Shown here piece after piece: positions 6,132-62,541 of a DNA stretch of 64,000 nt. Position 1 is the stretch's first letter; every line of letters starts with the position of its first letter. The DNA is taken from positions 88,226,001 through 88,290,000 of the forward strand of contig OZ024746.1 of NCBI GenBank assembly GCA_964016885.1. Reading direction: 5' to 3'. A program made the translations under genes and the position numbers. The stretch comes from Eledone cirrhosa. Taxonomy: Eukaryota. The notes beneath the pieces are model-generated. The model made no database searches and was not told where the DNA came from. It worked only from the letters and a program-made list of their open reading frames with translations.

Positions 6132-6378
6132 CAAAGGAATTGTGGTAAGGAACTAGATGGACCATAACGCACCAGAGTACTCAATACTTAGACTAGTAGA
6201 GTGGGAAATAGGAAACAGTATGACTCCGACGGCAGAGGTCAAGCCGTTTCGACGACTATTTCTGGACTAAATTAGAACTTTTAGCCTGGTGATTCACCAG
6301 GCTAAAAATTCTAATTTAGTTCAGAAATAGCCCTCGAAACGGCTTGAGCTCAGCCGTCGCGATCCTACTCGTTCCTAT
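6131..6378 (-). mobile_element. Short TA-targeted non-autonomous element with 5' inversion (family F2)
   Basis: Shared sequence gtggtaaggaac(c)agatggaccataacgcaccagagtactcaatacttag... plus a palindrome centred near 6291. Other copies at 26330, 52725 and 57181. Confidence 0.8.
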
Positions 6379-12118: not shown

Positions 12119-13570
12119 TATATTTATTAAAATAACAGATTAAAGTGTAAGCAAAGAATTGTTGCTTTCACCCTTAACGGGATCTTCTGAAATTAAAAAA
12201 GTAAATCTGTGAACGCAGAAGTAAATATTTCAAAAATCGTTGCAGCCGGAGGAGACAGGAAGACGATAATTTGGTTCGTTGAAACGTTCCCTGGCAAAAG
12301 ACGGGGAAGACGAAGATAATACGTCATTATTTGGAGCGGTGAAAAACAATTACACGCAAAGACAAAGCCACGTTTATGGTATAAAAGAAGTCGTAGACTA
12401 ATATTATATTAGGTGGTTCATGGAGCCGTTCTCTGGCAATGAACGCAAACAACGAAGATAATACGTCATATGTGGAGCGTGGAGAACAATTGCACGCAAA
12501 GACAAAACCACGTAAATGGTATAACTCAAGTCGTAGACTAAAATTCTAACTAGGAAACCGAATGATTCTCGACTTCAGAGTTAACAATAAAGTACATAAA
12601 ATACAGAGGTAATTGAAATTAAATAAATACATACACACAACCATATACGTACATACATAAGCATACGCGAAAACACTCGCCATAGGTATACAAATAGAAG
12701 CACGTACACACAAAAAAAACGCACGCACATACAGAACGTACGCGACGCCTGTACCCGCACACATACGAATGTATACACCAAATACACATGAAAATATATA
12801 TATAAAAAAAAAATATATATATATATATGCGCGTGTGTGTGCGTGTATACAAATAATTAAATAAAATTATATAAATAAATAAATACGTATATAACGCGCG
12901 CACAAACATACCTACATGTAAATACACATATGTTCGGAGACGTACGTCAACCAAAACACAAAGCACACATAACACACACCCTACATACGTACGAACCCAC
13001 ATACTCACACAGACGCAAAACTCGCGTATACACATAACCAAATGCATATGTACCAGAATATATAATATATACGCCATAACATATACGTGGTTTTGTCTTT
13101 GCGTGAAATTGTTCTCCCCCGCTCCACATATGACGTATTATCTTCGTTTTTCTTGTCCATTGCCAGATAACGTCTCCATGAATCACCTAAGAGAATATTA
13201 GTCTACGACTTCTTTTATACCATAAACGTGGTTTTGTCTTTGCGTGTAATTGTTTTTCACCGCTCCATTAATAACATATTACCTTCGTTTTTTCCCGTTC
13301 TTTGCCAGGGAACGTTTCCGCGAACCAAAGTATCGTCTTCCTCTCTTCCTCCGGTTGGAACGTTTTTTGAAATATTTACTTCTGCGTTCACATATTGACT
13401 CTTTTAGTTTTAGAAGATCCCGTTAAGGGTGAAAGCCGCGATTATTTGCTTAAAATTTAATCTGTTATTTTAATAAATATTTGCTCTACGGTTCTTATAT
13501 ATTTGATATATATATTTATTCTTACCGAGCCCTTTTGGATGTTTAGTCCTCAAATTTATTATTATTACTA
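12119..13570. mobile_element. Fold-back made of Poseidon-type PLE 3' UTR/pLTR sequence
   Basis: Diverged ~400-bp inverted arms (12119-12530 vs 13085-13481). 12119-13080 aligns with 45533-46390, the 3' UTR of the PLE at 45533-47600. Flanked by TA. Confidence 0.8.
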
Positions 13571-13589
13571 TATATATATATATATATAT

Positions 13590-16247
13590 TGTTATACTTT
13601 GGGAGGGTCATGTTGCCAATAAGAAACACACGCACCAGTGATTTCACTTTAATTTATTATAATAAATTTATAAATTTATAAATTTCTGGTTGGTTGGTTG
13701 GTTGGTTCCACAACCAGATAGTTGTTTATATATAGTCATAGTTCTTTCGTCACGCACTATGTGACCTCTTCAGTGACTGGGGATTCCTTTCTTTGTTTCT
13801 GTGCCTCTCCTTCGTTCTGTCCTATGCCATTTTGTTTCTGTGTGTCTGTTGTGTGCTCAGTCTGCGCATGCGCCACATCCGGGTGTTTGTGTGTGTTTAT
13901 GTTCATTTATTTATTTGTTTATTTACATGTTACTGGTTGTTTCTTTGTTCTATGTGTGTGTGTGTTTTCATTTTGTCCTTAATTGTAAGTTGTGATGTTG
14001 CTGTTCCACTCATATTTTTTATTTAATTTTGGTTGTAATTCTTTTATGTGTATTGCCTCTGTAATTTGTCTTAACATTGCGTCTTTTCTGTGTGTAGATT
14101 CTATTTTTATTTCTATGTTCTCTAATTTACCCTTGTGTTCTATTTTAGCATGTTGGTAGAGTACAGATGATTCTTTACTATCTTGAAGGTCTCGCCAGTG
14201 TTCATTTATCCGTTCCCCTACACTACGAGCTGTCTCACTTTTGTACACTATATTTTTGTCTCTACATTGTCCTTCAGTACATATTATGCTATACACTACA
14301 TTTCTAGTTTTACAGTTAATATGGGGGCTTATTTTACAGGTTATACATTTCTTATCTATACATGAGGGTCTTTGGAAAGGGTATGTCTTGCTAATAATGT
14401 TTTTACGGAGGTACCTGGTCTTTCTACTATCTTAATATTGAGTTTATGTTTATTTAGGGCCCTTCTAAATTTGTAAGCTAATTCACCTCTAGGGGTTGTA
14501 TCGATGAACATTACACTCTGGTATTTATTGCTATCATACCATGAGTTTATTCTATTAGCTTTGTTCCTAGTTCTTTCTATTATATTCCAAAATTTGCTCC
14601 TATACAAGTGGCAGGTCCCATTTATGTCATTATTTACCATTTTTCCCATTTAGTTCTGGCTCCTCTATACACTCTGATTGTATCTCTCTGATTGTAGCCG
14701 GAGAACTGCATACGGTGGATGAAGTGTTGTATGTGTCTCTCTAGTTCTTCGGGGTTGCACATGCGGGGCACGTTTCTCATCTCCCGTACCAAATCCGCAA
14801 TCAGTATGTTGATTTTGGTATGGTCCGAAACGGCCGAGTTTCGGTGGATCAGATGTTTGGAAGTCATGGGTTTGGCATAATGGGAATGGAGGATTTGTGT
14901 TTTGTTATTAATGGTATCTAACCAGAGCTCTGTGTCTAGTACAGGTAATCGATGGTTGGGGTGTTTACTTGGGTAGTCTATAGTAACTCTAATGCTCTGG
15001 TGGATGGAGTTAGCTATTTGCTGGATGCTTTCCATTGTGTTTTTCTCTAGTTCCTGACTGTTCTCTAGTGGGGGTGTCTTAACTACGATGTTTATATCAT
15101 CAACGTAGCGGGAGTACATTATCAGGGTTAAGGGGTCTTCTAATTGTTCTTTAAGTTTAATTTTAAGTCTACTGTTCCACCATACCATGAATAAGTTAGC
15201 TATGTCGCCTGCAATGCTAACACCAGTGGCTGCTCCTTCCTCTTGGGCATATGTTTTTCCATTAAATTTGAACATATGTTCCTTGAGGGTTAGTTTTATG
15301 CTGGCCCCTACCGCATGTGCAATCATTTTCTTCAGTTCATCGTGGTTTTCGGGTGTCCGTATGGCTCTGGTCCACCCGTTCCATCTATCTGTGTGGGTTT
15401 TCTTGGCCATTGAGGTAATGGTAGGTGGTCTGCCTCTTTCTGGTCTTGTAGGGCACAGGTTGCTAAGGTCATATGTGTCTAGGTAATTATTACTATAGGT
15501 AAATTTAAGTAGGAGTCCCAGCTCACTGGTATCAATCCAAAGGAACTCAATATTGCTCTCACTGATCATTTCTACGCATTTCTCCACAGTAAAATCCACG
15601 TCAAGAGATGGATACAGGGACACAACATCCATACTACCTATTATGGAGTTTGTTAGGTCCCTAGATCGGTTACTCACGCCGATTCTGCTGAGGAAGTCCT
15701 CCGTGCTGTCACATACATCTGGGGACATTTCAATGATGGGGCGTATGATCAGGGAGAGGAAGTAGGACAGTCTGTAGTTACTAGCAATGTTAGCTCCACA
15801 GACCGGCCGCGTTGGTGGTCCCGCGACAGGGTCACTGCCCGTTTTATGGTCTTTTCGAAGCCCATACAACGCCGGCACGTCATTGTTCCAGGCCTGGAAG
15901 TTGTTGGCAGTCCTTTTGTTGGGCTGCATGTGGGCATTGTGGGCGTTTTCACTATCCTCATGCTCCTGTGGTGTTACCTCTCTTGTGTTAGTGATGTGGG
16001 GTTGCATTGCCTGGATGTAGTTTGGCAGGCTGTCAACCGACATTCTGCCAGACTTGTCTGTTGGAAAGCATGCTATCTTTCGATTACGCGAGCGCTGCAT
16101 GAGCTTGCGCAAGCCATTTGCAGATGTTTCTTCCAGTTGCTGGGCCTCCATTCTATTATGCTTCTTGCTATACTGTTCTATAATATTTCTAAGTTCGGAT
16201 CTAGATATTCTAAATTGTGCTTCTGTTTGTTCATCGACCTGCGACGT

Positions 16248-16250
<3 letters not shown>
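13590..16250 (-). mobile_element. Penelope-like retroelement (RT + GIY-YIG, tentatively Naiad-like), 5'-truncated and frameshifted
   Basis: ORF 14634-16151 has TDKSG, GSMDVVSLYPS, YSRYVDD and LPVLDTELW. After two frameshifts come CIDKKCITC..C and the GIY-YIG ORF 13979-14296 (VVYSIIC..ETARSVGERINEH..LN). The pLTR holds a hammerhead. Both ends lie in (TA)n. Confidence 0.95.
13734..13778 (-). ncRNA. Minimal type I hammerhead ribozyme in PLE pLTR
   Basis: Minus strand: AGTCA CTGAAGA G GTCAC ATAGTGC GTGAC GAAA GAAC TA TGACT. Confidence 0.9.
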
Positions 16251-16297
<47 letters not shown>

Positions 16298-28204: not shown

Positions 28205-30660
28205 ATTATTTTATATGTTACGTGCTAGGAGCATATGCATTCTGAAAGACAGACTAAAACCCTCTCTCGATACACAGAAAGACATTTGTTGACCACCAGG
28301 CTGCCCTTCGGTACCAAGTGAATCGTCTGTATTTTGAGATCCACGTTTTTTTCGAAACAGAACATCAACTCCCTCTCCGTAGATCTCAAAATCATCGAAC
28401 ATGGGGGTTAGCTACTGCTTGTCGTGAATCTTAGACTCGGTGATGGCTATCACATCTATACGATGTGACCTGAGATAATTTAAAAGCTGGCCCGGTTTCC
28501 AGGCCACGGCCATGTACATTCAAACATCCAACTTGTATAGTCGCCATGTTGGTGAAGAAGAGTTAAGGAGCGAAAAGGCAGGAACATTTACCTTTTCGTT
28601 TCCTGGATGTCGAGTTATTCGACCTCCATTCCAGATTGGTGCTGTTTGGGGAGGTAGGGAGTCATTTTAGCAGGACACAGTTAAAGGGCATTTGCCACAT
28701 CATGTGGGAAGTTCTCTTTTAAAGTTTCATACTGTAGGGTTGTTACCCTGATATGGTTGAGGTTTGGGTGTGGGTCGTTGGTCGGGAAGGTTTTCCCTTC
28801 CGTTTGTATAGTAGGTCCTTCGGACAGTTTCCAGCGATTCTTTGTTATGTGTTTTTATGTATGTGTATTGTGCTTTGTTTTTTATGTGTACTGTTTCTGT
28901 TTGTAGTTTTCTTTTTGTGGTTGGGGTTTGTGATTGCGGTGGTGTGGGTGTTTGTTTTGTTGGTGAAGTGTTTGGTTGTGTTGGTGGTGATTGTCTTGTT
29001 GGTGTGTTTAATGTTTGTGGCAGTGTGTTTATGGTGGAGTTGGGTGTGTGCGTGTTTTCTGTAGATGTGTTTGTGTCTTTTTTGTTTTTTGGATTTTTGG
29101 GGTTCCTGTTCGTTCTGACTTGGAGATGTAGAGGTTCCCGTGTCTGAGACTTCTGAATCAGGGGTACATGGGAGGGTATGTTGTGTGGTGGAGTGTTTGT
29201 GCCGGTGTTTTGGGAAGTATTTGACAAGGAGGAAAGAGGCAATGGAGGGTTTTTCAGTGCGATTGTATCTGTGTGGTTGTCTCTGGTCTGTGGTGGTGTG
29301 GGAGTGGATGTTGCAGGTATTTGTGTTGTGTTTGCTTTGAGGTGTTGATGTTGGGGTTTTGGTGTTCGTAATAACACATTGTTTGTCCTCGGTTTGTTTA
29401 AGAGAGGGCAAAAGGCCTTTAAGTGTGTGGTTTTCCCACACATATGGCACTGAGGTCTTTGCCCCTCCACTAAAATGGGGATGACATCTTCCTCAAGGAC
29501 GATCATGTCCGGTATTTTCTCAACTCGCTCTAGCCTCATTTGTACCAGAACCTCGATGCAGGCTCTAAACCAGTTATGCCGATCTGTCCTGTCTACAGAT
29601 AGGAGGGTGTCCTCATCCTTCTTGAGGATGCAGCGTAGGATCCACCATATATTGACCTGGGCTCGGATCCTGGTTATTTTTATTTTGTAGGATTTCTTCC
29701 CATGTATGTGGGGAAGATGTGTTGATCCGTTTTTTATTGGGTGAACCGAGTATTTTTGTGACAGAGTTTGACTCTTAATGAGAACTGACACACTTCCATA
29801 CTGTTTATCTCTTTGGAGGTATGCCACATCAGGCTTGATATCTTTTAGTGCAGCTTCAATAGTGCTTGTTGGGAGCGTTATGTGTTTTTTGGTAATTATG
29901 TCAACTGTTCTATAAATTAGTTTCTTTTTATGTGTCATTTCTCTTACTTGTGGGGGTATGTGTATGTGTGGGGCGTCTCCCTCAAACGTCACATAGTTGG
30001 AAGCTTCTTCCAAATATTGGGACTTTTGGGAAATGTCCATTGAGTATTATTTAACATGCTGTTGCTTAGCAACGGTTGCTGCAAATGAAATTTTGTTATT
30101 GCTGTTGGTGGTGTTGATGATGGTCTCATTCGTTGTGTTGCCACTAATTCGTTTTGTTTTATTGTTGTAGTTCCCATTTATTGGGTTGTTGTTGTTGTTG
30201 TTTTTGCGGTGGTGTTAGTATTTGCTACATATACTTCCTTCTGTGCGTGAATACATGTGACGTTTGTGACGTCAGGCGTGTTCAGTTGCTTACAAGAAGG
30301 TGAAGCTTGTTCCTCTTCAAAATGTTGAGGCAATAGTGTTGGAATTCCTTTGTCCATGTCTGCTGCTACCTGCTGGTCAAGTAGGCATGGCTTTCCCTTC
30401 CCATCTTCTTGTTTTGACAAAAAAGTAGGTTCCTTTGCTTCGGCAATTTTTTAAAAATTGAAATGTTTTGCAAAAATATTTTCGAAAATATGTTGGATGT
30501 TTTTGCCCTGAGAGGCACGATATTTTGGGAGACTGACCAGATCAAAATTTGACCTGTTAGTCCCTCTAAAAATGTTTATAAAAATAAAAGTTCACAATGA
30601 TGAATTTCTAAAGAAATTTAAACAAAATTTACCGAGCAAGTTTAACACGTGTCCATCCCA
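28205..30660 (-). mobile_element. L1/Tx1-like LINE 5' half (5' UTR, ORF1 and start of ORF2 APE)
   Basis: ORF1 28727-30040 has a CCHC knuckle (CHMCGKTTHLKAFC) and a Pro/Thr-rich tail. ORF2 starts MATIQVGCLNV at ~28548 with DVIAITESK and GVDVLF. The RT portion is absent. Confidence 0.8.
28727..30040 (-). CDS. LINE ORF1 gag-like zinc-knuckle protein (probably disrupted)
   Basis: 437-aa ORF with ILVEGQRPQCHMCGKTTHLKAFCP. Confidence 0.75.
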   Translation of the reverse strand: MDISQKSQYLEEASNYVTFEGDAPHIHIPPQVREMTHKKKLIYRTVDIITKKHITLPTSTIEAALKDIKPDVAYLQRDKQYGSVSVLIKSQTLSQKYSVHPIKNGSTHLPHIHGKKSYKIKITRIRAQVNIWWILRCILKKDEDTLLSVDRTDRHNWFRACIEVLVQMRLERVEKIPDMIVLEEDVIPILVEGQRPQCHMCGKTTHLKAFCPLLNKPRTNNVLLRTPKPQHQHLKANTTQIPATSTPTPPQTRDNHTDTIALKNPPLPLSSLSNTSQNTGTNTPPHNIPSHVPLIQKSQTREPLHLQVRTNRNPKNPKNKKDTNTSTENTHTPNSTINTLPQTLNTPTRQSPPTQPNTSPTKQTPTPPQSQTPTTKRKLQTETVHIKNKAQYTYIKTHNKESLETVRRTYYTNGRENLPDQRPTPKPQPYQGNNPTV

Positions 30661-37718: not shown

Positions 37719-37921
37719 ATTGTATACGTACATACATATATGTATACATACGTACAGTAGTATGAATATATATATACATACATGCACACATATATCTATG
37801 TAAGTATCGATTTACCGAACATTTATTATAATGCTCGGTTTGTTTGTAAACAAACATCCCGAATTAAGCTGTACAGTGTTTAGCTACCATCGTTGCCCTT
37901 TTGTTCAACACTGACAAAGGA

Positions 37922-37964
37922 ACGATGTACTAGTTTCAAGCTTATTAGCTATCGTCAGCACCGT
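37922..37964 (-). ncRNA. Minimal type I hammerhead ribozyme (F1)
   Basis: ACGGTG CTGACGA TAGCTAATAAGCTT GAAA CTAG TA CATCGT on the minus strand. Confidence 0.88.
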
Positions 37965-38094
37965 ATACCTTCCTACCAGATGATTGAACGTCTGAAAGTA
38001 TATACTTTCTTCACGCTTATTAGGTTGCTCAGCCGTTAATATGCATCAGGAAGGTATATACTTTCAGACGTTCAATCATCTGGCAGGAAAGTAT

Positions 38095-38137
38095 ACGGTG
38101 CTGACGATAGCTAATAAGCTTGAAACTAGTACATCGT
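38095..38137 (+). ncRNA. Minimal type I hammerhead ribozyme (F1)
   Basis: Identical motif on the plus strand. Confidence 0.88.
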
Positions 38138-38382
38138 TCCTATGCACACACACATATATATATATATGTGTGTGTGCATGTATGTATATATATACGTACT
38201 ACTGTACGTATGTATACATATATGTATGTACGTATACATACTTATATATAAGCAACAGCCGTACTAAGAGTGAGAAATGAAATTTCGTTTCTTTTTTCCA
38301 TATATATATATATATATACAGAAAGAGAGAGAGGGGGGAGAGAGAGAGGCAGAGAGACACAGAGAGCGAGAGAGAGAGAGAG

Positions 38383-41638: not shown

Positions 41639-41673
<35 letters not shown>

Positions 41674-42063
41674 TTGCGAGGTTTTTTATATGAAATCGTG
41701 TGTCGAAACAGATATTGTTATATTTGGGGAGGGTCATATTTGCGTAATATTGCCAGAATTAATAACAGAACACACTCACTGTTTGGTTGGTTTTCGCTTC
41801 TCGCTGTCTTTTATATATATATATCTGCGATCTAACTTACTCGGTCCTCAATGTTGCCATTGACTGACCGGCGGTCAAAAATAATACAGATACAATATAG
41901 ACAAACACATATATATATAGTTTACATAAATCTTTCGTTGCACATCTGCAACATCGTCAGTGGTGTTATATTCATTGTTCCTCCTGTTGTGTTGTATGTC
42001 TACGCCATTTTTTTTTTTTGTTCAGTCTGTCTATATATTTATTTATTTATTTGCTTATTTATT

Positions 42064-44983
42064 CACAAAAATACGTTGGAATGCAAAGGTAAACAACAAC
42101 AACAATAATAACGGTAGTAGTAATATAAACAATAACTCTGGGTATAGAAATAACAGCCATAACCATAACAATGGCAGGAAAGTGAGAAATAGTGATAATG
42201 GTAATAATACTAGCGATAGACAGAACAACAACAACCACAATAATAATAATAATAGAAACGTTAACCACAGACACAGCAACAGTGACCACAGTAGTAATAA
42301 CGGTAACAATACGAACAACAACAACAACAATAACCACAGTGGTAATAATGGAAATAGTACATGTAGCAACATCAACAAAAACAAGAAACATAATAATAGT
42401 AACAACCACAATGGTAGAAATAGCAGTAACAACAACAACAATAACGGTGAAGTAAACAACAATACATCTAGCAATCATAACAATAATAATATTAATGCTA
42501 AGGATAGAAACAACAACAACCACCATGATAACAATAATAGCAACACACACAACTATGACGATAGAAATAACGACAACCCCTTAGAGAAACTATTTTTCAA
42601 CCCAGCTGACAAAACATATAAGATGGGTAATATCTATCCTACGAGGTTACCCTTTAATAAAAGAGTTTGCATACCACAACAAATAGATGACGAGACGGAG
42701 GCACAGTTCACCATAGCTAGAAATAAGATTAGACAAGTAGTAGACAGGTACACTATGAGACAGAGCAGACCAGAGGCCCAACAACTTGGGATAAAACCTG
42801 TAGAAGGCTTGGTTAGCCTCAAGCAGCGCACAAGGGATGGTGAGGTAGTGTGTCTACCCACAGATAAGTCTGGTAGGATGTCAATAGATAGCATGCCGAA
42901 CTACATCGAGGCAATGCAACCCCACATCACCAACACGAGCGAAGTTGCACAACTAACACACGATGGGAGAGAAAAAATCCTCAACGCTCACATGATGATG
43001 TGGACTGACATCCTAAAGCCAAGCAGACGCACTGCCAACAACTTCCAGGCGTCTAACAATGGCATACCACCCTTGTATGGGCTCCGCAAAGACCACAAGA
43101 CTGTCGACGACCCGACAATAGGACCACCAACAAGACCTGTATGCGGAGCTAATATAGCTAGCAACTACAGGATCTCCTACTTCCTCTCAATGGTTATACG
43201 CCCCATAATCAAGATGTCCCCAGATGTATGTGAAAGTACAGAGGACCTCCTCAGCAGAATCAGTGAGTGCAACAAAAACAGGAGCCTATCCAACTGCATA
43301 ATAGGCAGCATGGATGTGGTGTCACTGTACCCATCCATTAACATTGATTTTGCTGTGAAAAGATGTGTGGAGATGATCATTGAGAGTGAGGTGGAGTTCT
43401 GCGACGTCGACACAGACGAACTGGGCCTCCTACTTAGACTTACCTACGACACTGACTACCTAGACAGCCATGACCTTAGATGTTTCTGCCCTAGTAGACC
43501 TATAAGAGGTAGACCCCCCACCATAACCTCAATGGCTAAAAAGACTCCCATAGGAAGGTGGATTGGGTGGACCAAAGCTATACGGACCCCCCAAAACACT
43601 GATCAGGTAAGAAAAATGGTCGCACATGCAATAGGGGCTAGTATCAAAACTACCCTAAAGGGCCACATATTTAAGTTCAATGAGAAAGTCTACACCCAAA
43701 ATGAGGGAGCAGCCATCGGCGTCAGCATAGCTGGCGATGTTGCCAACCTTTTCATGGTATGGTGGGAAAGGAGACTTAAAGATCTCCTTAATGAAAGCTC
43801 CATAGACCTCATCATGTACTCTCGTTATGTAGACGATATCAATATAGTTATAAGAACACCCCCACTAGAGAGCACTAACAAGTTTGATTTAGAACGTAGC
43901 ACGATGGAAAGCATCCAGCAGATAGCTAATTCCATACACCAGAGTATAACTGTAACTATAGACTTCCCTTCCAAACACCCTAACAATAGACTACCTGTAT
44001 TAGACACAGAACTCTGGATCAACACTATAGACGAGAGAGCCCAAATTCTCCACTCACACTATGCTAAACCCATGGCCTCCAAATACCTGATACTCAAAAA
44101 CTCAGCAATGTCCAGTAGTGCTAAGTTTAATATTCTGATCGCAGATTTGGTACGAGTGATGAAGAATGTGTCCAGCATGTGCGACCCAACAGAAATGGAA
44201 GGACACATCCAACACTTCATCAACCGCATGCAGTTCTCTGGCTACAACCAAAGAGACAGAGTCAGAGTATACGAAGGAGCCATGGAAAAGTATAAGACCC
44301 TCATAGAACTGGACATGAAAGGAATTTGCCCACTATACAGGAGCAAATCATGGAATAGCTTAGATAGGGCTAGACATAAGATAGGGAAGGCCACATCATG
44401 GTACGACAACCAGAGATATCAGAGTGTCATGTTTGTGGACGCCACCCCTGGAGGGAAATTAGCTAACCAGTGTAGAAAGGCCCTGAGAAAGACCCACTTA
44501 AAAATAAAGGTGGTAGAAAAGCCAGGAACCACCATAAAATCCCTGATCAGCAAAACCTACCCTTTTAAGAAAACCCACTGTACCAATAGGTAATGTATCA
44601 TATGTAAGGTGAACCCCCGGATAAACTGTAAAACTAGAAACGTAGTCTATAGCATAAGATGTACAGAGGGTACTTGCAGAAACACGACAACAACATACAT
44701 AGGTGAGACAGCTCGTAGCATAGGTGAAAGGATAGACCAACACTGGGGGGAACTAAAAGGACGAAAAAACGGGTCAGTACTATACGAACATGCTAGACAA
44801 CATCATGACGGTAACATAGACAACATAGAAATTAGAATAATATCTAAACATAGGAATGACCCAGCAGATAGGCAAATCAGAGAGGCCAGTGAAATAGAAA
44901 TTAGAAGACCAAAGCTAAACAGAAAGAATGAGTGGAACAACAACAACACCCAAACAAACAACACTGACCTAAGAGAAGTATAA
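42064..44983 (+). CDS. PLE polyprotein: Asn-rich region, RT, Cys linker and GIY-YIG; 5'-truncated, one in-frame TAA at 44591
   Basis: TDKSG, GSMDVVSLYPSI, GAAIGVSIAGDVANLFM, YSRYVDD, CTNR*CIIC..C, VVYSIRC..YIGETARSIGERIDQH..REA..LN. ORFs 41960-44593 and 44609-44983 are in the same frame. Confidence 0.93.
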
Positions 44984-45253
44984 ATAAATAAGTAAATTGA
45001 ATTAAATAAAATAAGATAAATAAATACATACACAAGCACATAAACACACACTAGTCACCCAGCAGACACAACACTATACACACTAGTCACACATCACACA
45101 TAACACTATACACACACGCAAACGCATGCGCAAAGAAGACAAAATAAAATAAGATAAACAAACAAGCAAATAAATAAATAAATATATAGACAGACTGAAC
45201 AAAAAAAAAAAATGGCGTAGACATACAACACAACAGGAGGAACAATGAATATA

Positions 45254-45296
45254 ACACCACTGACGATGTTGCAGATGTGCAACGAAAGATTTATGT
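45254..45296 (+). ncRNA. Hammerhead motif in pLTR with weak stem I (mirror copy at 41924-41966 on the minus strand)
   Basis: ACACCA CTGACGA T GTTGCA GATG TGCAAC GAAA GATT TA TGT. Core and stem II are perfect; stem I has only 2 contiguous pairs. Confidence 0.65.
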
Positions 45297-45532
45297 AAAC
45301 TATATATATATGTGTTTGTCTATATTGTATCTGTATTATTTTTGACCACCGGTCAGTCAATGGCAACATTGAGGACCGAGTAAGTTAGATCGCAGATATA
45401 TATATATAAAAGACAGCGAGAAGCGAAAACCAACCAAACAGTGAGTGTGTTCTGTTATTAATTCTGGCAATATTACGCAAATATGACCCTCCCCAAATAT
45501 AACTATATATATATATATATATATATAAATTA

Positions 45533-47600
45533 ATTATTAAAATAACAGATTAAAGTTTAAGCAAAGAATCGCTGCTTTCACCCTTAACGGGATCTTCTGA
45601 ATCTAAACAAGTTAATCGGTGAACGCAGAAGCAAATATTTCAAAAGACGTTGCAACAGGAGGAAGACAGGAAGACGATACTTTGCTTCGTGGAAACGTTC
45701 CCTGGCAATGAAAGGAAAAAGAACGAAGATAATACGTAATTATTTGGAGCAGTGAATTGGCAGTATCGGTAGAGGGTCGGACGCCATGCTTTTCTAGCAT
45801 AGTTACGTCCCTTTACAGTCTGAGTTCAAATCCCGCCGAGGTTAACTTTGCCTTTCATCCTTACGGGGTCGATAAAATAAAGTACCAGTAATGCACTGCG
45901 TAATTGCTGGCCTTGTGCCTAAAGTAGAAACAATTATTTGGAGCGATGAAAATAATTACACGCAATGACAAAACCACGTTTGTGGTATAAATGAAGTCGT
46001 AGATTAATATTCTATTAGGTGGTTCAAGGAGACGTTCTCTGGCAATCAACGGAAAAAACGCAAAGACAAAACCACGTAAATGCTATAACCGAAGTCGTAG
46101 ACTAAAATTCTAAGTTGGAAACCGAATTCAGAGTTAAGAACAAAGTAAATAAAATACAGAGGTAATTGAAATTAAATAAATACATACACGCATCCATATA
46201 GTACATACATAAGCAGACGCGAAACACACGTCATAGGTATGTCCGCAGGCGTACGCCGACCAAAACACAAAGTACACATATACACACACCCTACATACGT
46301 ACCAACCCGCGTACTCGCACAGACGCAAAACGCGCGTATACACATAACCAAACGCACATGTACCAGAATATATATTATATACACCGTAACATATACAGGC
46401 AAATATGCGTTCGAGAAAGTATACGTACCTTCACAAAACATACATGTAATATATACTTACCTATACAAATAAATAAGGTATAAACATAACATATACTTAG
46501 CTAACACATCAAGACGTAAAATATCCGCGTATAGTTCGTACTATACGTTAGGGTATAATGTGGGGCTGAAATACAGAAAGGTTTTGTGCAATTTATGTTT
46601 ACAAGCCGAAATTACCTCAGATTCTTTGTTTAAGATGTGGTCTTTGACGTAAGGTATTTCCAGGGCCTCATCAGCGCAGAGGTCACATGGTATTTTATTT
46701 CCGTTATACGATCTATCCCTAGCTAGGATCTCCCAGTGTTATTTATAGTGTGTGTGGTTGTCTTTTAGACTCCAGATATCAGCTGAAAGGGTTCAGAAAA
46801 GAATGGGTATGCATGTAAAGACGCTGCTTGGATCTATTGGCGGTTAACACTATGTAGGCCCTACGGGACGTGGGTGTTTCAAGCAACATTTGTAGACAAT
46901 ATTACTAGAGAAGCATTTCCCGCATAGGGGGCAGTAAACCCGATTCCTACAATTACAGTTATTACTAGCTACAGGATTGCACGTGTTCCTACGGCTAGAT
47001 AGTTTAGCTATATTTGAAGCTGTGATGTTACGTGCAAGGTTAGGAGTCGTAGAGTAAGACATTTTAATGCTATTTCTATTAAGCATTTTACTATATTTAA
47101 ATGCTTCATAATAAAGGAGAGAAAGATCTTAGCTAATGGTGTGGTCACCTCCATATTATATGGTGGGTTATACCATTAAATGCGTAGGGATTTATTTTTC
47201 ATAGGTCTATTCTCGTACTCTGTATATGCTACCTTATCGACGAATCCACACCGAGCAAGAGCTTCATTGTAATATCTGGAATGGTCGTTGAAATCATATT
47301 CGTTAGTAGATAGACGGAAAAATCATCAAATAAACGTTTCTTACCAGGTTCTTGGTTATGCTGGCAGGATGGTTGAGAATGCTTACTTATATAATTAAGC
47401 GTATCATTCGGCTTTCTATACGGATAGGGCAAGCTATTCGACAAATTGAGGGTAACGTCGAGGTAATTACCGACCGAGAGGTTGGCCTGAACCTGTATGG
47501 AGAGGTTGCCTTAAAGAAGCTGTGAGTTCTTTTCTGAACCTGTCGCAAGCACGTGGGCCGCACTTTGTCGTAGTAACTGTAAGATATTGACAGAGTTGTA
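45533..47600 (-). mobile_element. Decayed Penelope/Poseidon-type PLE (RT end, GIY-YIG and ~1-kb 3' UTR)
   Basis: PYRKPNDTLNYISKHS, IKMSYSTTPNL..CNCRNRVYCPLCGKCFSSNIVYKC and CDLC..E..LNK.SE.ISACKHK. A degenerate hammerhead-like motif (CAGAAGA TCCCGTTAAGGGT GAAA) lies near 45580. Confidence 0.85.
45751..45931 (+). mobile_element. tRNA-derived SINE (MetaSINE/MESC-like core) with 13-bp TSD, nested in a PLE UTR
   Basis: A box TGGCAGTATCGG, B box GAGTTCAAATCC, core gcctttcatccttacggggtcgataaaataaagtaccag. TSD aattatttggagc at 45738-45750 and 45932-45944. Confidence 0.9.
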
Positions 47601-55230: not shown

Positions 55231-55820
55231 GAGAAATTAGAAATTATAAGCTTTCACCGTATTTTAGACTAAAGAAATGTCTAGCCTGATAGTGGGGTTT
55301 ATAACCCTCGGAGAAATGGAAAAAGATGATAACCAAAGATGTGGGTTCGACTCCCATGTACGGCAACACTCATCTTTTTCCATTTCTCCGAGGGTTATAA
55401 ACCTCACTACCAAGCTAGAAATTTCTTTAGTCTAAAATGCGGTGAAAGCTTATAATTTCTAATTTCTAATTTTCAAACTCGCGTACCGTTTCAAAAACAT
55501 AATTACATGTTTACATTTATAATTTGCTTGCTTATCATTCACTTGCTAAGTTCAAAGCTTCTAATTCGAATGGAAGGAGACGGGATGTGTATTGGTGTAA
55601 TGGTACCACATTGGTCTGGATAACCAAAGATGTGGGTTCGACTCCCATGTACGGCAACACTCATCTTTTTCCATTTCTCCGAGGGTTATAAACCCCACTA
55701 TCAGGCTAGAAATTTCTTTAGTCTAAAATACGGTGAAAGCTTATAATTTCTAATTTCTAATTTTCAAATTCGCGTACCGTTTCAAAAACATACTTACATG
55801 TTTACATTTTTAATTTGCTT
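55231..55820 (+). mobile_element. Tandem 291-bp-unit element containing a tRNA-like cassette, with inverted 5' arm
   Basis: 55330-55530 repeats at 55621-55820; 55233-55329 is an inverted copy; TA flanks. Confidence 0.85.
55584..55656 (+). pseudogene. tRNA-like sequence (D, anticodon and T arms paired; acceptor stem degraded)
   Basis: TGGT-GTAATGGT-ACCA, TTGGT-CTGGATA-ACCAA, GTGGG-TTCGACT-CCCAT. Confidence 0.7.
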
Positions 55821-56064
55821 GTATATATATATACATATATATATATGTGTGAGTGTATATAAATATATATATATATATATACATATGTGTGTATCTGTGC
55901 ATATATATATATATATATTGAGAAGAGTTACACAAAATTCGATGAGTATATCAAAGAATGAGTGTTACAGTAAATTGTAAGCACTCTACGGAGAAATAAT
56001 TTTCCGGGGTTATTAATATTACAATATAAATATTAATAAAATAGATGTTCTTTCGATCAATTAC

Positions 56065-56170: not shown

Positions 56171-56670
56171 GTTTGTGTTCATTTTTCTATTTTTCTATTT
56201 ATATTTTATATTTTTATATTTGTTTATTTAAATATAAATATAAATAGAAAATATAAATAGAAAAATAGAAAAATGAACACAAACACACACAGACACCCGG
56301 ATGTGGCGCATGTGCAAACTGAGCACACAACACACACACAGAAACAAAATGGCGTAGGATAGAAGAAAGGAAAGGCACAGAAACGAAGAAAGGAATCCCC
56401 AGTCACTGAAGAGGTCACAGAGTGTGTGACGAAAGGACTATGACTATATATATAAACAACTATCTGGTTGTGGAACCAACCAACCAACCAGAAATTTATA
56501 AGTTTGTAAATATGTAAATTTGTAAATTTATGAATATATAATAAATTGAAGTGAAAGCAACTGGTGCGTGTGTTTATTATTGGCAACATGACCCTCCCAA
56601 AGTATAACAATATCGGTTTCAACACACGATTTCAGATAAAGAATCTTGCTAAACAAATTCAGAAACGAAA
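56171..56670 (+). mobile_element. Solo pLTR of the 13590-16250 PLE subfamily with small 5' inversion and ORF-start tail
   Basis: 56272-56610 aligns with the reverse complement of 13590-13905. Palindrome 56171-56284. The tail encodes [28 protein letters not shown]. Confidence 0.9.
56401..56445 (+). ncRNA. Minimal type I hammerhead ribozyme in solo pLTR
   Basis: AGTCA CTGAAGA G GTCACA GAGTG TGTGAC GAAA GGAC TA TGACT. Confidence 0.9.
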
Positions 56671-59606: not shown

Positions 59607-61576
59607 CTGGAACACACACATGCATACATGATATATATAAAGAAGATCGATAGGAAGATGAACGTTATTATACATCTCGTCCTTATATGTATTCATATTG
59701 ATATACGTATATACGTTTATGATTTCATTTATGCCATTTTTATTGTTCGTTTATATGAAATTGGTTTTACTTTCTATTACAAGAATGACTAAAGACTGAA
59801 GCCGGAAGAAATATATATCATATAAAAAGGATGACCTCATTTCTTTCAAGGAAAATACATACATCACTATGACAACTATTTCTATGTGAAGAAATATAAA
59901 ACGAAATACAATATTCTTATTGTAGAAAAGAAAGAAAATTAATTTGACTAGATTCAAAGTTCAGTTTTTTAATGACGTTGTATAGATGAAAAGGTCATGA
60001 AACATTGGTTCTATTATTGAAACTGCATATTCTAAGAAGGACAATATAATGCGTCAAATCCGATTCTCTATTTTAAGTGAGAAGAATGAAATTGTTGAAG
60101 ATCTGGTATATCTATATCATATCTATTTCTATAACATACACAAAAATAAGGTAGTATCTATAATAATTTGAAATAATTATTTCTCGTATATCACCCATTC
60201 ACCTATGATTGTCATTTTTTTATGTTGTTTAGATTTATGTCCGAGCCAGGCGTATATCTCGTGTATCTACTTATATTATAACCAAATTATCCCTCCATTT
60301 CCAAATGAAGTTGTATATGATTTATGCCATTTTCTAGACTTTGAGGAGCCACGTAGGAGGTCTCTCATCGCCTAGAATATATATGGGTTCATGCCATTAT
60401 ATTACATATTTATATGTGCGTCACGGTTATCATTATGTTAAAGATATACATCTCTACTCTAACGGCTTGGTCTTATAATCGGTTTCCGAATGTTGCGTCA
60501 CATCTAAAATATTGATTATATAGAAGTAAAAACTGTAAACCATAGATGTGTGTTAGAGACTATTGCCAGGCACTAGCTCAGTAACAAAGTGAGGTGAAAA
60601 TAACTATGAAGCCTTTTTCTCGGAAATATCTATGACGACATTTCAAGGAAAATAATTATCGAGCATTTTCTCGGTATTTGCTATGAAGCCTTTTTCTTGG
60701 AAAGATGAGAAATGTAGGGTGGACAGAATACTCGACACGGAGTCATGCACATCATATTTTATGCAATCCAAAATTAGTGGATAACAAATAAATACATATT
60801 CTACATTGTGGTGATTTTAAACCACCGAAACGAGACAAAGAATTCACTGAGGATACTAATAAATTGCATTAAATCGTGTAAGCGTTATATTCCCAGGTAT
60901 CAATATTTCTCGTAAAAAATCCATAGCAGAAAAACTGATTGTGTTAAAATATATAATTAAAATATTTCTAACTTTTCGTACATACGTAAATTATATGCAA
61001 GAGAGGTTTTGGTGCTACACACTTCTTTCCGTCAAATACTAACCGAACAGGGATAACATACTTCATTTTGAAGTATGTATGTAGGATTACCAGTGGCTAT
61101 TAGGATTTTCTTCAAAATCAGTGAGAAAGAGATCGGTTATGAATAAAGCCTTTAGCATTTGTAACATTTCTATTCCGATTTAATTTCATATTAATACCTG
61201 TTAATATTTATGAACTTTGCTATAATCAGAAGCAGCCCACAAGAAGAAATCATTTTGCAAATGCATTCTCTATTATATATAGAGGAAGATATATATCATA
61301 ATAATCAATTGTATAACAATGTTCATATGTTACATGTAAATTAACAGTGACCTTATCTTAAATATTCTGTATAAATATGGCCGTCAAAACAATATAGTTC
61401 TTCCGTTATTATTATGGAGATTATAAGGGGTCTTTATTAAATAAAAGAAAGCATTTTAATGACTTTTAAATTTAAATACATGTCATATATTCCACAGCGT
61501 AATTGATATTTCATTATATTGATAGTCTCTAAAATTATGTTTATTTATAAATGTGTAAATGCTGGGTATAAAGTCT

Positions 61577-61867
61577 ATGTACAAGTATAGCAATTTCGGT
61601 GCAATTCCGTGAGAGATTCTAAGAGGAGATGTGTGCCAAAAATCGATAGACAGACAGACAACCACAGTTTTATATATATAGATTATGTTGAATATAATTT
61701 CAATCCTATATGTTTTCATTGCAAATGAAAACATATAGGATTGAAATTATATTCAACATAATCTATATATATAAAACTGTGGTTGTCTGTCTGTCTATCG
61801 ATTTTTGGCACACATCTCCTCTTAGAATCTCTCACGGAATTGCACCGAAATTGCTATACTTGTACAT
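61577..61867. repeat. Perfect palindrome, 144-bp arms with 3-nt loop
   Basis: 61577-61720 is the reverse complement of 61724-61867; loop gca. Confidence 0.95.
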
Positions 61868-62541
61868 TGAGCCCTAGCGAAGACATCGGAAAAAAATAAT
61901 TTCAAATTGACCCACCCTATGTGACGAAATCGAATATAATGTATCGATTTTTGAGCGTAAGTTATCAGTTATTTCCCTTTGTTCTGTTTACATTGAGCGT
62001 CTTACGTAAAAAATTACGCTGGCTTTCTCAGCGTTTAAAATGACATTAACACAATACACGAACAGATCAGTTCGAACACTAAGCTTCCGTTTTGCTTCAT
62101 TTCCATTTAAAAGCATTTTAAAACAATATTTTTACTTGAAAACAAGTCTATTTAAAGACTACGTAAAACAAGCAAATATTTCAGGCGTGCAGACAGACAG
62201 TCGTGCAGAGAGGTGATATAGGCGTGCAGACAGACATAACTGATAATTTGATTACGCTAATGTTTTTCTCTGCGTTGCAGTGTTTACATTTTCGATCTTT
62301 GTTAATAAATAACCAGTGCAGTTTTTATCCCCAGCATCCTCTTTTGTTATAACATTCGGGTTATCGTTATGTTTTCTTAACTTCATAAGGCATATTGTTG
62401 GTTGAGGGAATATTAATCAAAAACACCACATGCAAGTCTGCACAGTAGATACTACAGTTTTTAAGCCAAAAAAGAAACTTAACATTGTAACTTTAACACA
62501 GCTACTGAGCGACCCCGAGCAACGCCGGGCTTTACTGCTAG
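61762..62541 (+). mobile_element. Non-autonomous Helitron
   Basis: A|TCTATATATATAAAA 5' end, (GTCT)n near the start, subterminal hairpin CCCGAGCAACGCCGGG, and 3' CTAG|T. Confidence 0.85.

Follow-up and report, generated by a model that had tools for sequence, protein, structure and literature searches.

A 5'-truncated Penelope-like element of Eledone cirrhosa with a C-terminal endonuclease and a long insertion in the fingers of its reverse transcriptase

The reverse transcriptases (RTs) of Penelope-like elements (PLEs) form the sister group of telomerase. In the current classification, as summarized in PMC8557442, PLEs with an N-terminal endonuclease (EN) contain an insertion in the fingers domain (IFD), unlike canonical PLEs. 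Naiads combine the N-terminal EN with a DKA motif and an IFD of about 20 aa; elsewhere the same RT motif reads DKG (canonical PLEs) or DKT (Hydra), again according to PMC8557442. Here we describe a PLE at positions 41671..45503 of a 64,000-nucleotide stretch of the genome of Eledone cirrhosa (contig OZ024746.1, positions 88,226,001 to 88,290,000; the whole stretch is hereafter called the window). This element has a C-terminal EN and an insertion of approximately 68 aa in the RT fingers.

We are fairly confident that this is a 5'-truncated C-terminal-EN PLE, likely dead and likely less than about 2 million years (My) old, and that the conserved stretch of about 70 residues inserted between motifs A and B of its RT likely sets a separate PLE lineage apart. 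Features of the PLE order could be identified, i.e. a telomerase-related RT (YVDD, motif A), a GIY-YIG EN in the same frame, and pseudo-long terminal repeats (pLTRs) with an inverted copy and a one-sided tail. As a single copy the element is ordinary, since truncated, broken PLEs with inverted pLTRs and tails are already well described. What makes it interesting is less its youth than the RT insertion and the possibility of a new clade.

The group and its place among described clades

Motifs A and B of the window RT are separated by 133 residues. Distances of 122–158 residues (median 134) were found in all 191 sequences with both motifs aligned, from a sample of 271 (269 matches, the window protein, and a sister PLE found elsewhere in the window); a separate count of 105 sequences included one fused, internally deleted protein with a distance of 93. 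In the rows of Fig. S1 of PMC8557442, a count by hand gave 62–65 for single rows of Penelope, Nematis, Neptune and Hydra; two Naiads with an IFD have 86 and 89, two Chlamys elements 107 and 124, and four telomerase reverse transcriptases (TERTs) 112–154. Mean conservation is 0.43 within the insertion, compared to 0.45–0.55 in the flanking RT. The features of the element are as follows:

41671..45503 (+): whole insertion, a PLE truncated at the 5' end, where it carries an inverted pLTR, within a (TA)n tract; target-site duplication unreadable
41671..41716 (-): "tail" of 46 nt, at the left end only, extending the pLTR reading frame to codon 22; a homologous tail occurs in the solo pLTR near 56588-56670
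41717..42056 (-): inverted pLTR copy, 340 bp, with a hammerhead core at 41960-41933 and the likely start codon at 41737
42057..42061 (no strand): head-to-head junction of two 5'-truncated copies; arm identity stops at 42056 and coding homology begins at 42062
42062..44983 (+): remnant of the single RT-EN open reading frame (ORF), beginning at the conserved xRW motif, with about 200 N-terminal codons gone
42080..42577 (+): Asn-rich in-frame tract, 166 aa, 50% Asn
42863..42871 (+): DKS motif
43307..43720 (+): RT motif A (43307) to motif B (43706), 133 aa
43397..43600 (+, approximate): fingers insertion of about 68 aa at the IFD position, with conserved E, P, R, G, P, W and P; predicted to be folded
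43826..43837 (+): catalytic YVDD (motif C)
44579..44605 (+): C-x4-CxxC linker motif, with the next Cys 7 residues on (Nematis-type spacing)
44591..44593 (+): in-frame TAA at a non-conserved linker position
44594..44983 (+): C-terminal GIY-YIG EN with CCHH and catalytic-type R, H, E and N, matched by eye to rows of Fig. S2 of PMC8557442; no Pfam match
45164..45503 (+): 3' pLTR, whose likely start codon, 45483, lies 7 codons ahead of the TA tract, with donor-like GTAAGT (45380) and GTGAGT (45441)
45260..45310 (+): minimal hammerhead-type motif; core intact, stem II of 6 bp, stem I of 2 proximal bp only
45326..45400 (+): stable hairpin (z = -4.8), missing from the sister pLTR, containing the sole arm mismatch

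The EN is C-terminal in 156 of the 157 relatives with both motifs, and its region in the window is matched by a profile of relatives with E = 3e-37, while a Pfam search of the window ORF gave only a sub-threshold match to RVT_1. DKS was found in 70 and DKT in 5 of the 75 scorable sequences among 122 relatives. The EN linker spacer is 7 residues in 104 out of 157 relatives, the same as in the three Nematis rows of Fig. S2, whereas the counted Neptune and Naiad rows have 17–27. The group motifs are DKS, KDHK, GxxIG and xRW, together with the Nematis-type EN linker. The sole relative with an EN only ahead of the RT, P0156, consists of linker and EN followed by an N-terminal region and RT; its RT match ends before the thumb-linker region, and it is probably a tandem read-through rather than a permuted form.

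A profile search yielded 2461 clusters at 50% identity (E ≤ 1e-30), of which the best 150 were examined; the remainder may include other clades. The named matches nearest to the window protein are Octopus vulgaris proteins (52–76% identity), and the few named matches give O. vulgaris, Holothuria leucospilota and Argonauta hians as hosts of the group. Atlas clusters, either unnamed or labelled DUF8422/HTH_animal, indicate rotifers, arthropods and chordates on few records. The EukProt entries P0038 and P0078 also fall inside the group; if they are from protists, the hosts of C-terminal-EN PLEs extend beyond animals and conifers. The sister PLE of the same group (13586-16251, - strand) has 71% nucleotide identity over 2197 bp to the 41671..45503 element; it is 5'-truncated, has frameshifts near 14640 and 14400, and carries a 3' pLTR ending in (TA)n.

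We tentatively propose, at close to an even chance, that these sequences represent an undescribed deep PLE clade, occurring widely among aquatic animals and, in octopuses, mobile to this day, that combines a Nematis-type EN, Hydra-like N-terminal RT motifs and a telomerase-sized fingers insertion. A description of the group was not found in the literature searched, which did not extend to Arkhipova 2006, Repbase or Dfam, and an EN-only search for other clades returned 2 proteins, both unnamed. The supplement of PMC8557442, with Naiad, Chlamys and Hydra sequences, gave zero matches for RKDHK, RPVCG, GGAIG and GGPIG.

Several points weigh against a separate lineage or against its novelty. The relatives were collected using insertion-containing queries, and the uniformity of the A-to-B distance is in part a selection effect. 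A FastTree analysis of 148 sequences (43 of the 191 left out for low coverage or lack of motif C; insertion included; midpoint root) grouped the window element, the sister and the O. vulgaris relative P0001 with support 1.0, but it contained no named clade references or outgroup and hence gives no placement among named clades. A Pfam 38.1 family (PF28514, DUF8422) already covers many group members, and sporadic short inserts between motifs 3 and 4 are known in Adineta Pen3/Pen5a and some Coprina.

The last two points also favour another reading, in which these sequences form a branch of Nematis (or of a paraphyletic Neptune) with a long fingers insertion that has been catalogued before, in Repbase or Dfam under generic Penelope names. 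We regard this as a serious possibility, albeit one somewhat short of an even chance. The linker spacer of 7 agrees with it, as does a post-thumb VVEKPG that resembles one Nematis row. In O. vulgaris, moreover, 30 recently active Penelope families with 329 insertions are reported without clade names in the relevant part of PMC13282606. On the other hand, the Nematis and Neptune rows have 62–65 residues from A to B, DKG or DKR, K[TI]HK and GxAMG, where the group has about 134, DKS (70/75), KDHK and GxxIG, and both xRW and KDHK are common to the group and Hydra instead.

Comparison with each named clade gives a mosaic of likenesses. Like Nematis, the window element has a C-terminal GIY-YIG EN with CCHH, a short CX2-5CxxC linker followed by the next Cys after 7 residues, and a similar post-thumb segment. 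It differs from Nematis in having RKDHK instead of YKTHK and GxAIG instead of GLAMG, and in its insertion of about 70 aa in an RT that in Nematis is canonical, without an IFD (A-to-B about 65). With Hydra it shares the C-terminal EN, an xRW (RWK-type) motif, KDHK, (TA)n targeting, a putative hammerhead motif and aquatic hosts; Hydra, however, lacks CCHH and an IFD, has a CxCX5C linker, DKT and a different motif B, and comprises elements of less than 3 kb, compared to an ORF of about 1,000–1,200 aa in the group described here. Neptune also has a C-terminal EN, a Cys linker and a microsatellite bias, but its linker spacer is about 25, its motif is DKG, and the Neptune rows are shown without a fingers insertion. 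Penelope/Poseidon have no Cys linker between RT and EN, unlike the window element.

The Penelopes of Adineta vaga, as described in PMC3846280, resemble the window element in their inverted pLTR and one-sided tail, an ORF start within the pLTR (22 codons when the tail is counted), Asn-rich tracts kept in frame and frequent single stops. They group with Penelope/Poseidon, however, lack the Cys linker and have their Asn inserts at other positions, and the insert between motifs 3 and 4 of Pen3/Pen5a is short and Cys-rich (PMC3846280). Naiad and Chlamys share with the window element an insertion at the IFD position, an inverted pLTR, a tail and 5' truncation, and Naiad shares a (TA)n bias. Their EN is N-terminal, however, and their insertions comprise about 20 aa in Naiad and about 20–40 aa in Chlamys (one row with a distance of 124). 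The region corresponding to the CxC and KR-rich block between EN and RT of Naiad is missing from the truncated window copy.

The preliminary description had assigned the element to Naiad, and (TA)n targeting, the CX2-5CxxC motif, a hammerhead core kept in some Naiads, the occurrence of Naiads in octopuses and their possession of an IFD would all agree with this. The assignment is nevertheless refuted by the domain order, the defining feature of Naiad in PMC8557442, and by the motifs, and can practically be dismissed: the EN is C-terminal here and in nearly all relatives, the motif is DKS and not DKA, the insertion is about 70 and not about 20 aa, the sister family has a full minimal hammerhead, and both TA targeting and the Cys motif also occur in Neptune, Nematis or Hydra. 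TA targeting itself was correctly recognized, as both ends sit in (TA)n, but (TA)n is not diagnostic; the cited motifs GAAIGVSIAG and LPVLDTELW, looked for as GAAIG and LPVLD, have zero occurrences in the supplement of PMC8557442 mentioned above.

Relation of the insertion to the telomerase IFD

Two AlphaFold2 models had mean predicted local distance difference test (pLDDT) scores of 92 and 94, with values of 87–98 for ten-residue blocks across the insertion, which is modelled as a pair of short helices plus loops and has hardly any strands. The best structural matches were telomerases, with Z 13–14 for the long model and, for the core model, yeast TERT with Z 15.9, a root-mean-square deviation of 3.3 and 280 aligned residues. 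A telomerase as best fold match is to be expected of any PLE. TERTs are the closest solved folds (Z 13–16) and have a similar A-to-B distance, the comparison being by whole domain and not by the insertion alone; they differ in showing only 10–14% identity and in lacking a GIY-YIG EN. Sequence searches of the PDB gave only weak bacterial RT matches, with no TERT and no PLE.

The position of the insertion, its length range (112–154 from A to B in the TERT rows) and the telomerases among the top structural matches could suggest that it is homologous to the telomerase IFD/TRAP and was kept from a common ancestor of PLEs and TERTs. We consider this improbable. The aligned length hardly grows with the length of the IFD: in whole-domain superpositions 274 residues of Tribolium TERT (289 over the model range) were aligned, and 280–292 for the yeast, Candida and human TERTs with their longer IFDs, and thus most of the 68 inserted residues seem not to superpose on the longer IFDs. 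In addition, the few strands in the modelled insertion and the lack of any TERT sequence match in the profile search argue against homology. The insertion is more likely to have been gained independently than inherited from telomerase. The IFD helices of TERT are described in PMC8740718 as bracing the fingers and supporting repeat-addition processivity, and by analogy the likely role of the insertion is to brace either the fingers or the duplex of template and primer.

State, age and formation of the copy

The arms (41717-42056 and 45164-45503) are each 340 bp long and differ only at 41872 (C vs T on the aligned strand, a CpG transition); T12, (TA)6, (TA)5 and (ATTT)4 tracts have the same lengths in both. 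Both element ends are embedded in (TA)n, and the one-sided tail measures 46 nt, compared to 30–40 nt described for PLEs. Several statements of the preliminary description are borne out here: a PLE with inverted pLTRs is evident from the arms, tail and (TA)n ends, the 340-bp arms do differ at one position, and RT and GIY-YIG lie in one frame, split by a single TAA (44591) in the Cys linker where the sister has AAA at the aligned codon. The frame 41930-44983 has this one internal stop and zero in-frame TGA codons, in agreement with the view that the copy is not of a selenoprotein type.

The earlier claim that the element is one stop away from an intact frame is misleading, as about 200 N-terminal codons and the direct pLTR are missing as well. 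GTG 41960, which had rightly been placed in the inverted arm, and ATG 41996 were both rejected as start codons, since they lie within the antisense pLTR arm. Element-derived coding sequence, previously put at about 42064, was measured from 42062 (FTKIRW, cf. FTKLRW of P0005), two bases apart, and its first Met is at 42623. Among the 30 Met-initiated, pattern-matching relatives longer than 1000 aa, 28 have 184–269 residues before xRW and the other two 666 and 705, while this copy has 4; these lengths were taken from pattern matching, since multiple alignment misplaced the Asn-rich region. By this comparison, the copy has lost approximately 200 N-terminal codons, together with the upstream direct pLTR, and the full protein is not encodable. 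The region after xRW comprises 188 aa, compared to 27–75 aa in 38 of 41 relatives, and has a tract with 50% Asn where relatives reach at most 21%; Asn-rich inserts are known at other positions in the Adineta Penelopes of PMC3846280.

A likely start codon of the intact element lies in the pLTR. Read in the sense of the element, the last 7 codons of the pLTR form a frame opened by an ATG, and the tail lengthens this frame to 22 codons; in Pen2a of Adineta the ORF start reported in PMC3846280 is also inside the pLTR, with 22 codons including the tail. Between the 22-codon frame opened by ATG 41737 and its counterpart in a solo pLTR belonging to the sister family, 9 sites differ, 7 of them in third positions, with 6 synonymous codons (binomial p = 0.008). 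This solo pLTR, at 56260-56670 (+, approximate), is 87% identical to the sister pLTR; its tail is longer, at about 27 codons, and it contains a hammerhead at 56406-56434. A [FY][DN]TR motif was found near the N-terminus of 2 out of 59 full-length relatives against 0.03 expected, the motif having been picked post hoc. An HMM of the relatives' N-termini gave no significant match in the window (best E = 0.056). Weighing against a start in the pLTR, BLASTP of the pLTR peptide against the relatives gave no significant match (E = 33 and 0.10), and the pLTR ATG could fall in an intron, with the donor-like sequence at 45441 upstream and no AG downstream. GTAAGT 45380 is likewise upstream of this ATG, GTGAGT 45441 is partly conserved in the sister pLTR, and an intron in the 5' region is possible, as in Penelope and Chlamys-3.

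The window contains 4 hammerhead cores with a paired stem II, each of them inside a pLTR, compared to 0.13 in 100 shuffles, and the core is present in both arms of the 41671..45503 element. Stem I has 5 bp in the sister family (full minimal hammerhead of the sister PLE at 13773-13745), like the minimal hammerhead motif described in PMC4209133, and only 2 proximal pairs in the 41671..45503 family. The case for a hammerhead in the latter family is weakened by this poor stem I and by the folding of the entire motif, which is no more stable than that of shuffled sequences (z -0.14), and an Rfam search gave no hammerhead match.

One mismatch in 340 bp corresponds to about 0.4 My (range 0.01–2.3 My), at the rate of 0.0036 per My for O. 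bimaculoides as used in PMC13282606, assuming that the arms were identical at insertion and that no conversion has occurred. The copy has likely been inserted within the last 2 My or so and is likely dead. It had been called very young: the near-identical arms make it probably young, but this age rests on a single CpG mismatch with a wide range, and gene conversion between the inverted arms could hide an older insertion.

The TAA is most likely a private nonsense mutation, because 187 of the 269 relatives align at least 30 aa beyond its position in one ORF (BLAST-based). The sister copy and O. vulgaris P0001 are also open there. At this divergence about 4 ORF substitutions are expected, with a probability of 15% (0.4–59%) for at least one nonsense change, and two more private substitutions (43340 and 43766) affect positions whose conservation among the relatives is at least 90%. 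The TAA may also be an assembly error, which would count against a private mutation. Coleoid cephalopods are known for heavy A-to-I recoding, and 4 of the 269 relatives end within 15 aa of the TAA position. A programmed TAA in an active family, whether by readthrough, by A-to-I editing that turns UAA into a Trp codon or through a design with two ORFs, nevertheless appears very improbable and is unsupported, given the relatives open across the position. The codon lies inside the Cys linker at a column with 15 different residues, i.e. unconserved, and a chance nonsense change alone has the probability given above. UAA followed by U is not known as a leaky context.

For the formation of the copy we propose a mechanism by analogy with an anole PLE, whose protein, as reported in PMC11167929, cut both strands of AT-rich DNA in vitro and primed at two internal RNA sites bounding the tail; what can be read directly from the window is confined to the domains, ends, tail, truncation and stop. 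An RT-EN protein from an intact or helper copy would nick both strands of the (TA)n tract and then begin reverse transcription at two internal positions of the RNA, a short way into the ORF. A first cDNA, begun at about codon 7, would extend for about 3.4 kb and stop at the xRW motif, while a second, begun at about codon 22, would reach about 390 nt. Head-to-head joining of the two cDNAs would account for the inverted arms and for the tail being confined to one end. The TAA would most likely stem from one substitution after insertion, or have been copied from a defective template. The pLTRs of this copy might still be mobilisable in trans, as reported for Adineta in PMC3846280.

Other elements of the window, and significance

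The DNA of the window is rich in microsatellites and contains several further repeats. One repeat begins just past the 3' (TA)n tract of both PLEs (45528-46400, +; 13482-13012, -) and is also found at 12124-12689 (+); 12124-12522 and 13476-13076 form an 89% inverted pair of it, and the repeat may be another TA-associated element. A 439-aa open frame at 28727-30046 (-), with a CX2CX4HX4C knuckle and a Thr/Pro-rich tail, is similar to ORF1 of long interspersed elements and has no Pfam match. Long self-palindromes at 61574-61870 (98%), 37915-38144 (90%) and 6208-6378 (85%) are probably foldback or inverted repeat insertions. A duplicated, inverted block at 55232-55821 with a tRNA-like match at 55589-55653 (Rfam, 39.5 bits) is probably the head of a tRNA-derived short interspersed element.

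Young Penelope copies in O. vulgaris have already been counted, as reported in PMC13282606. The existence of a large set of C-terminal-EN elements whose insertion is conserved and of telomerase length is relevant to the question of whether the IFD is an ancestral trait or has been gained repeatedly. If the proposed clade is real, it would be the first among C-terminal-EN PLEs to be characterized by an insertion of this kind, and the rule restricting such insertions to N-terminal-EN PLEs would no longer hold. The group would need its own clade label in repeat libraries, and offers a single-protein system for testing the effect of the insertion on processivity and internal priming.

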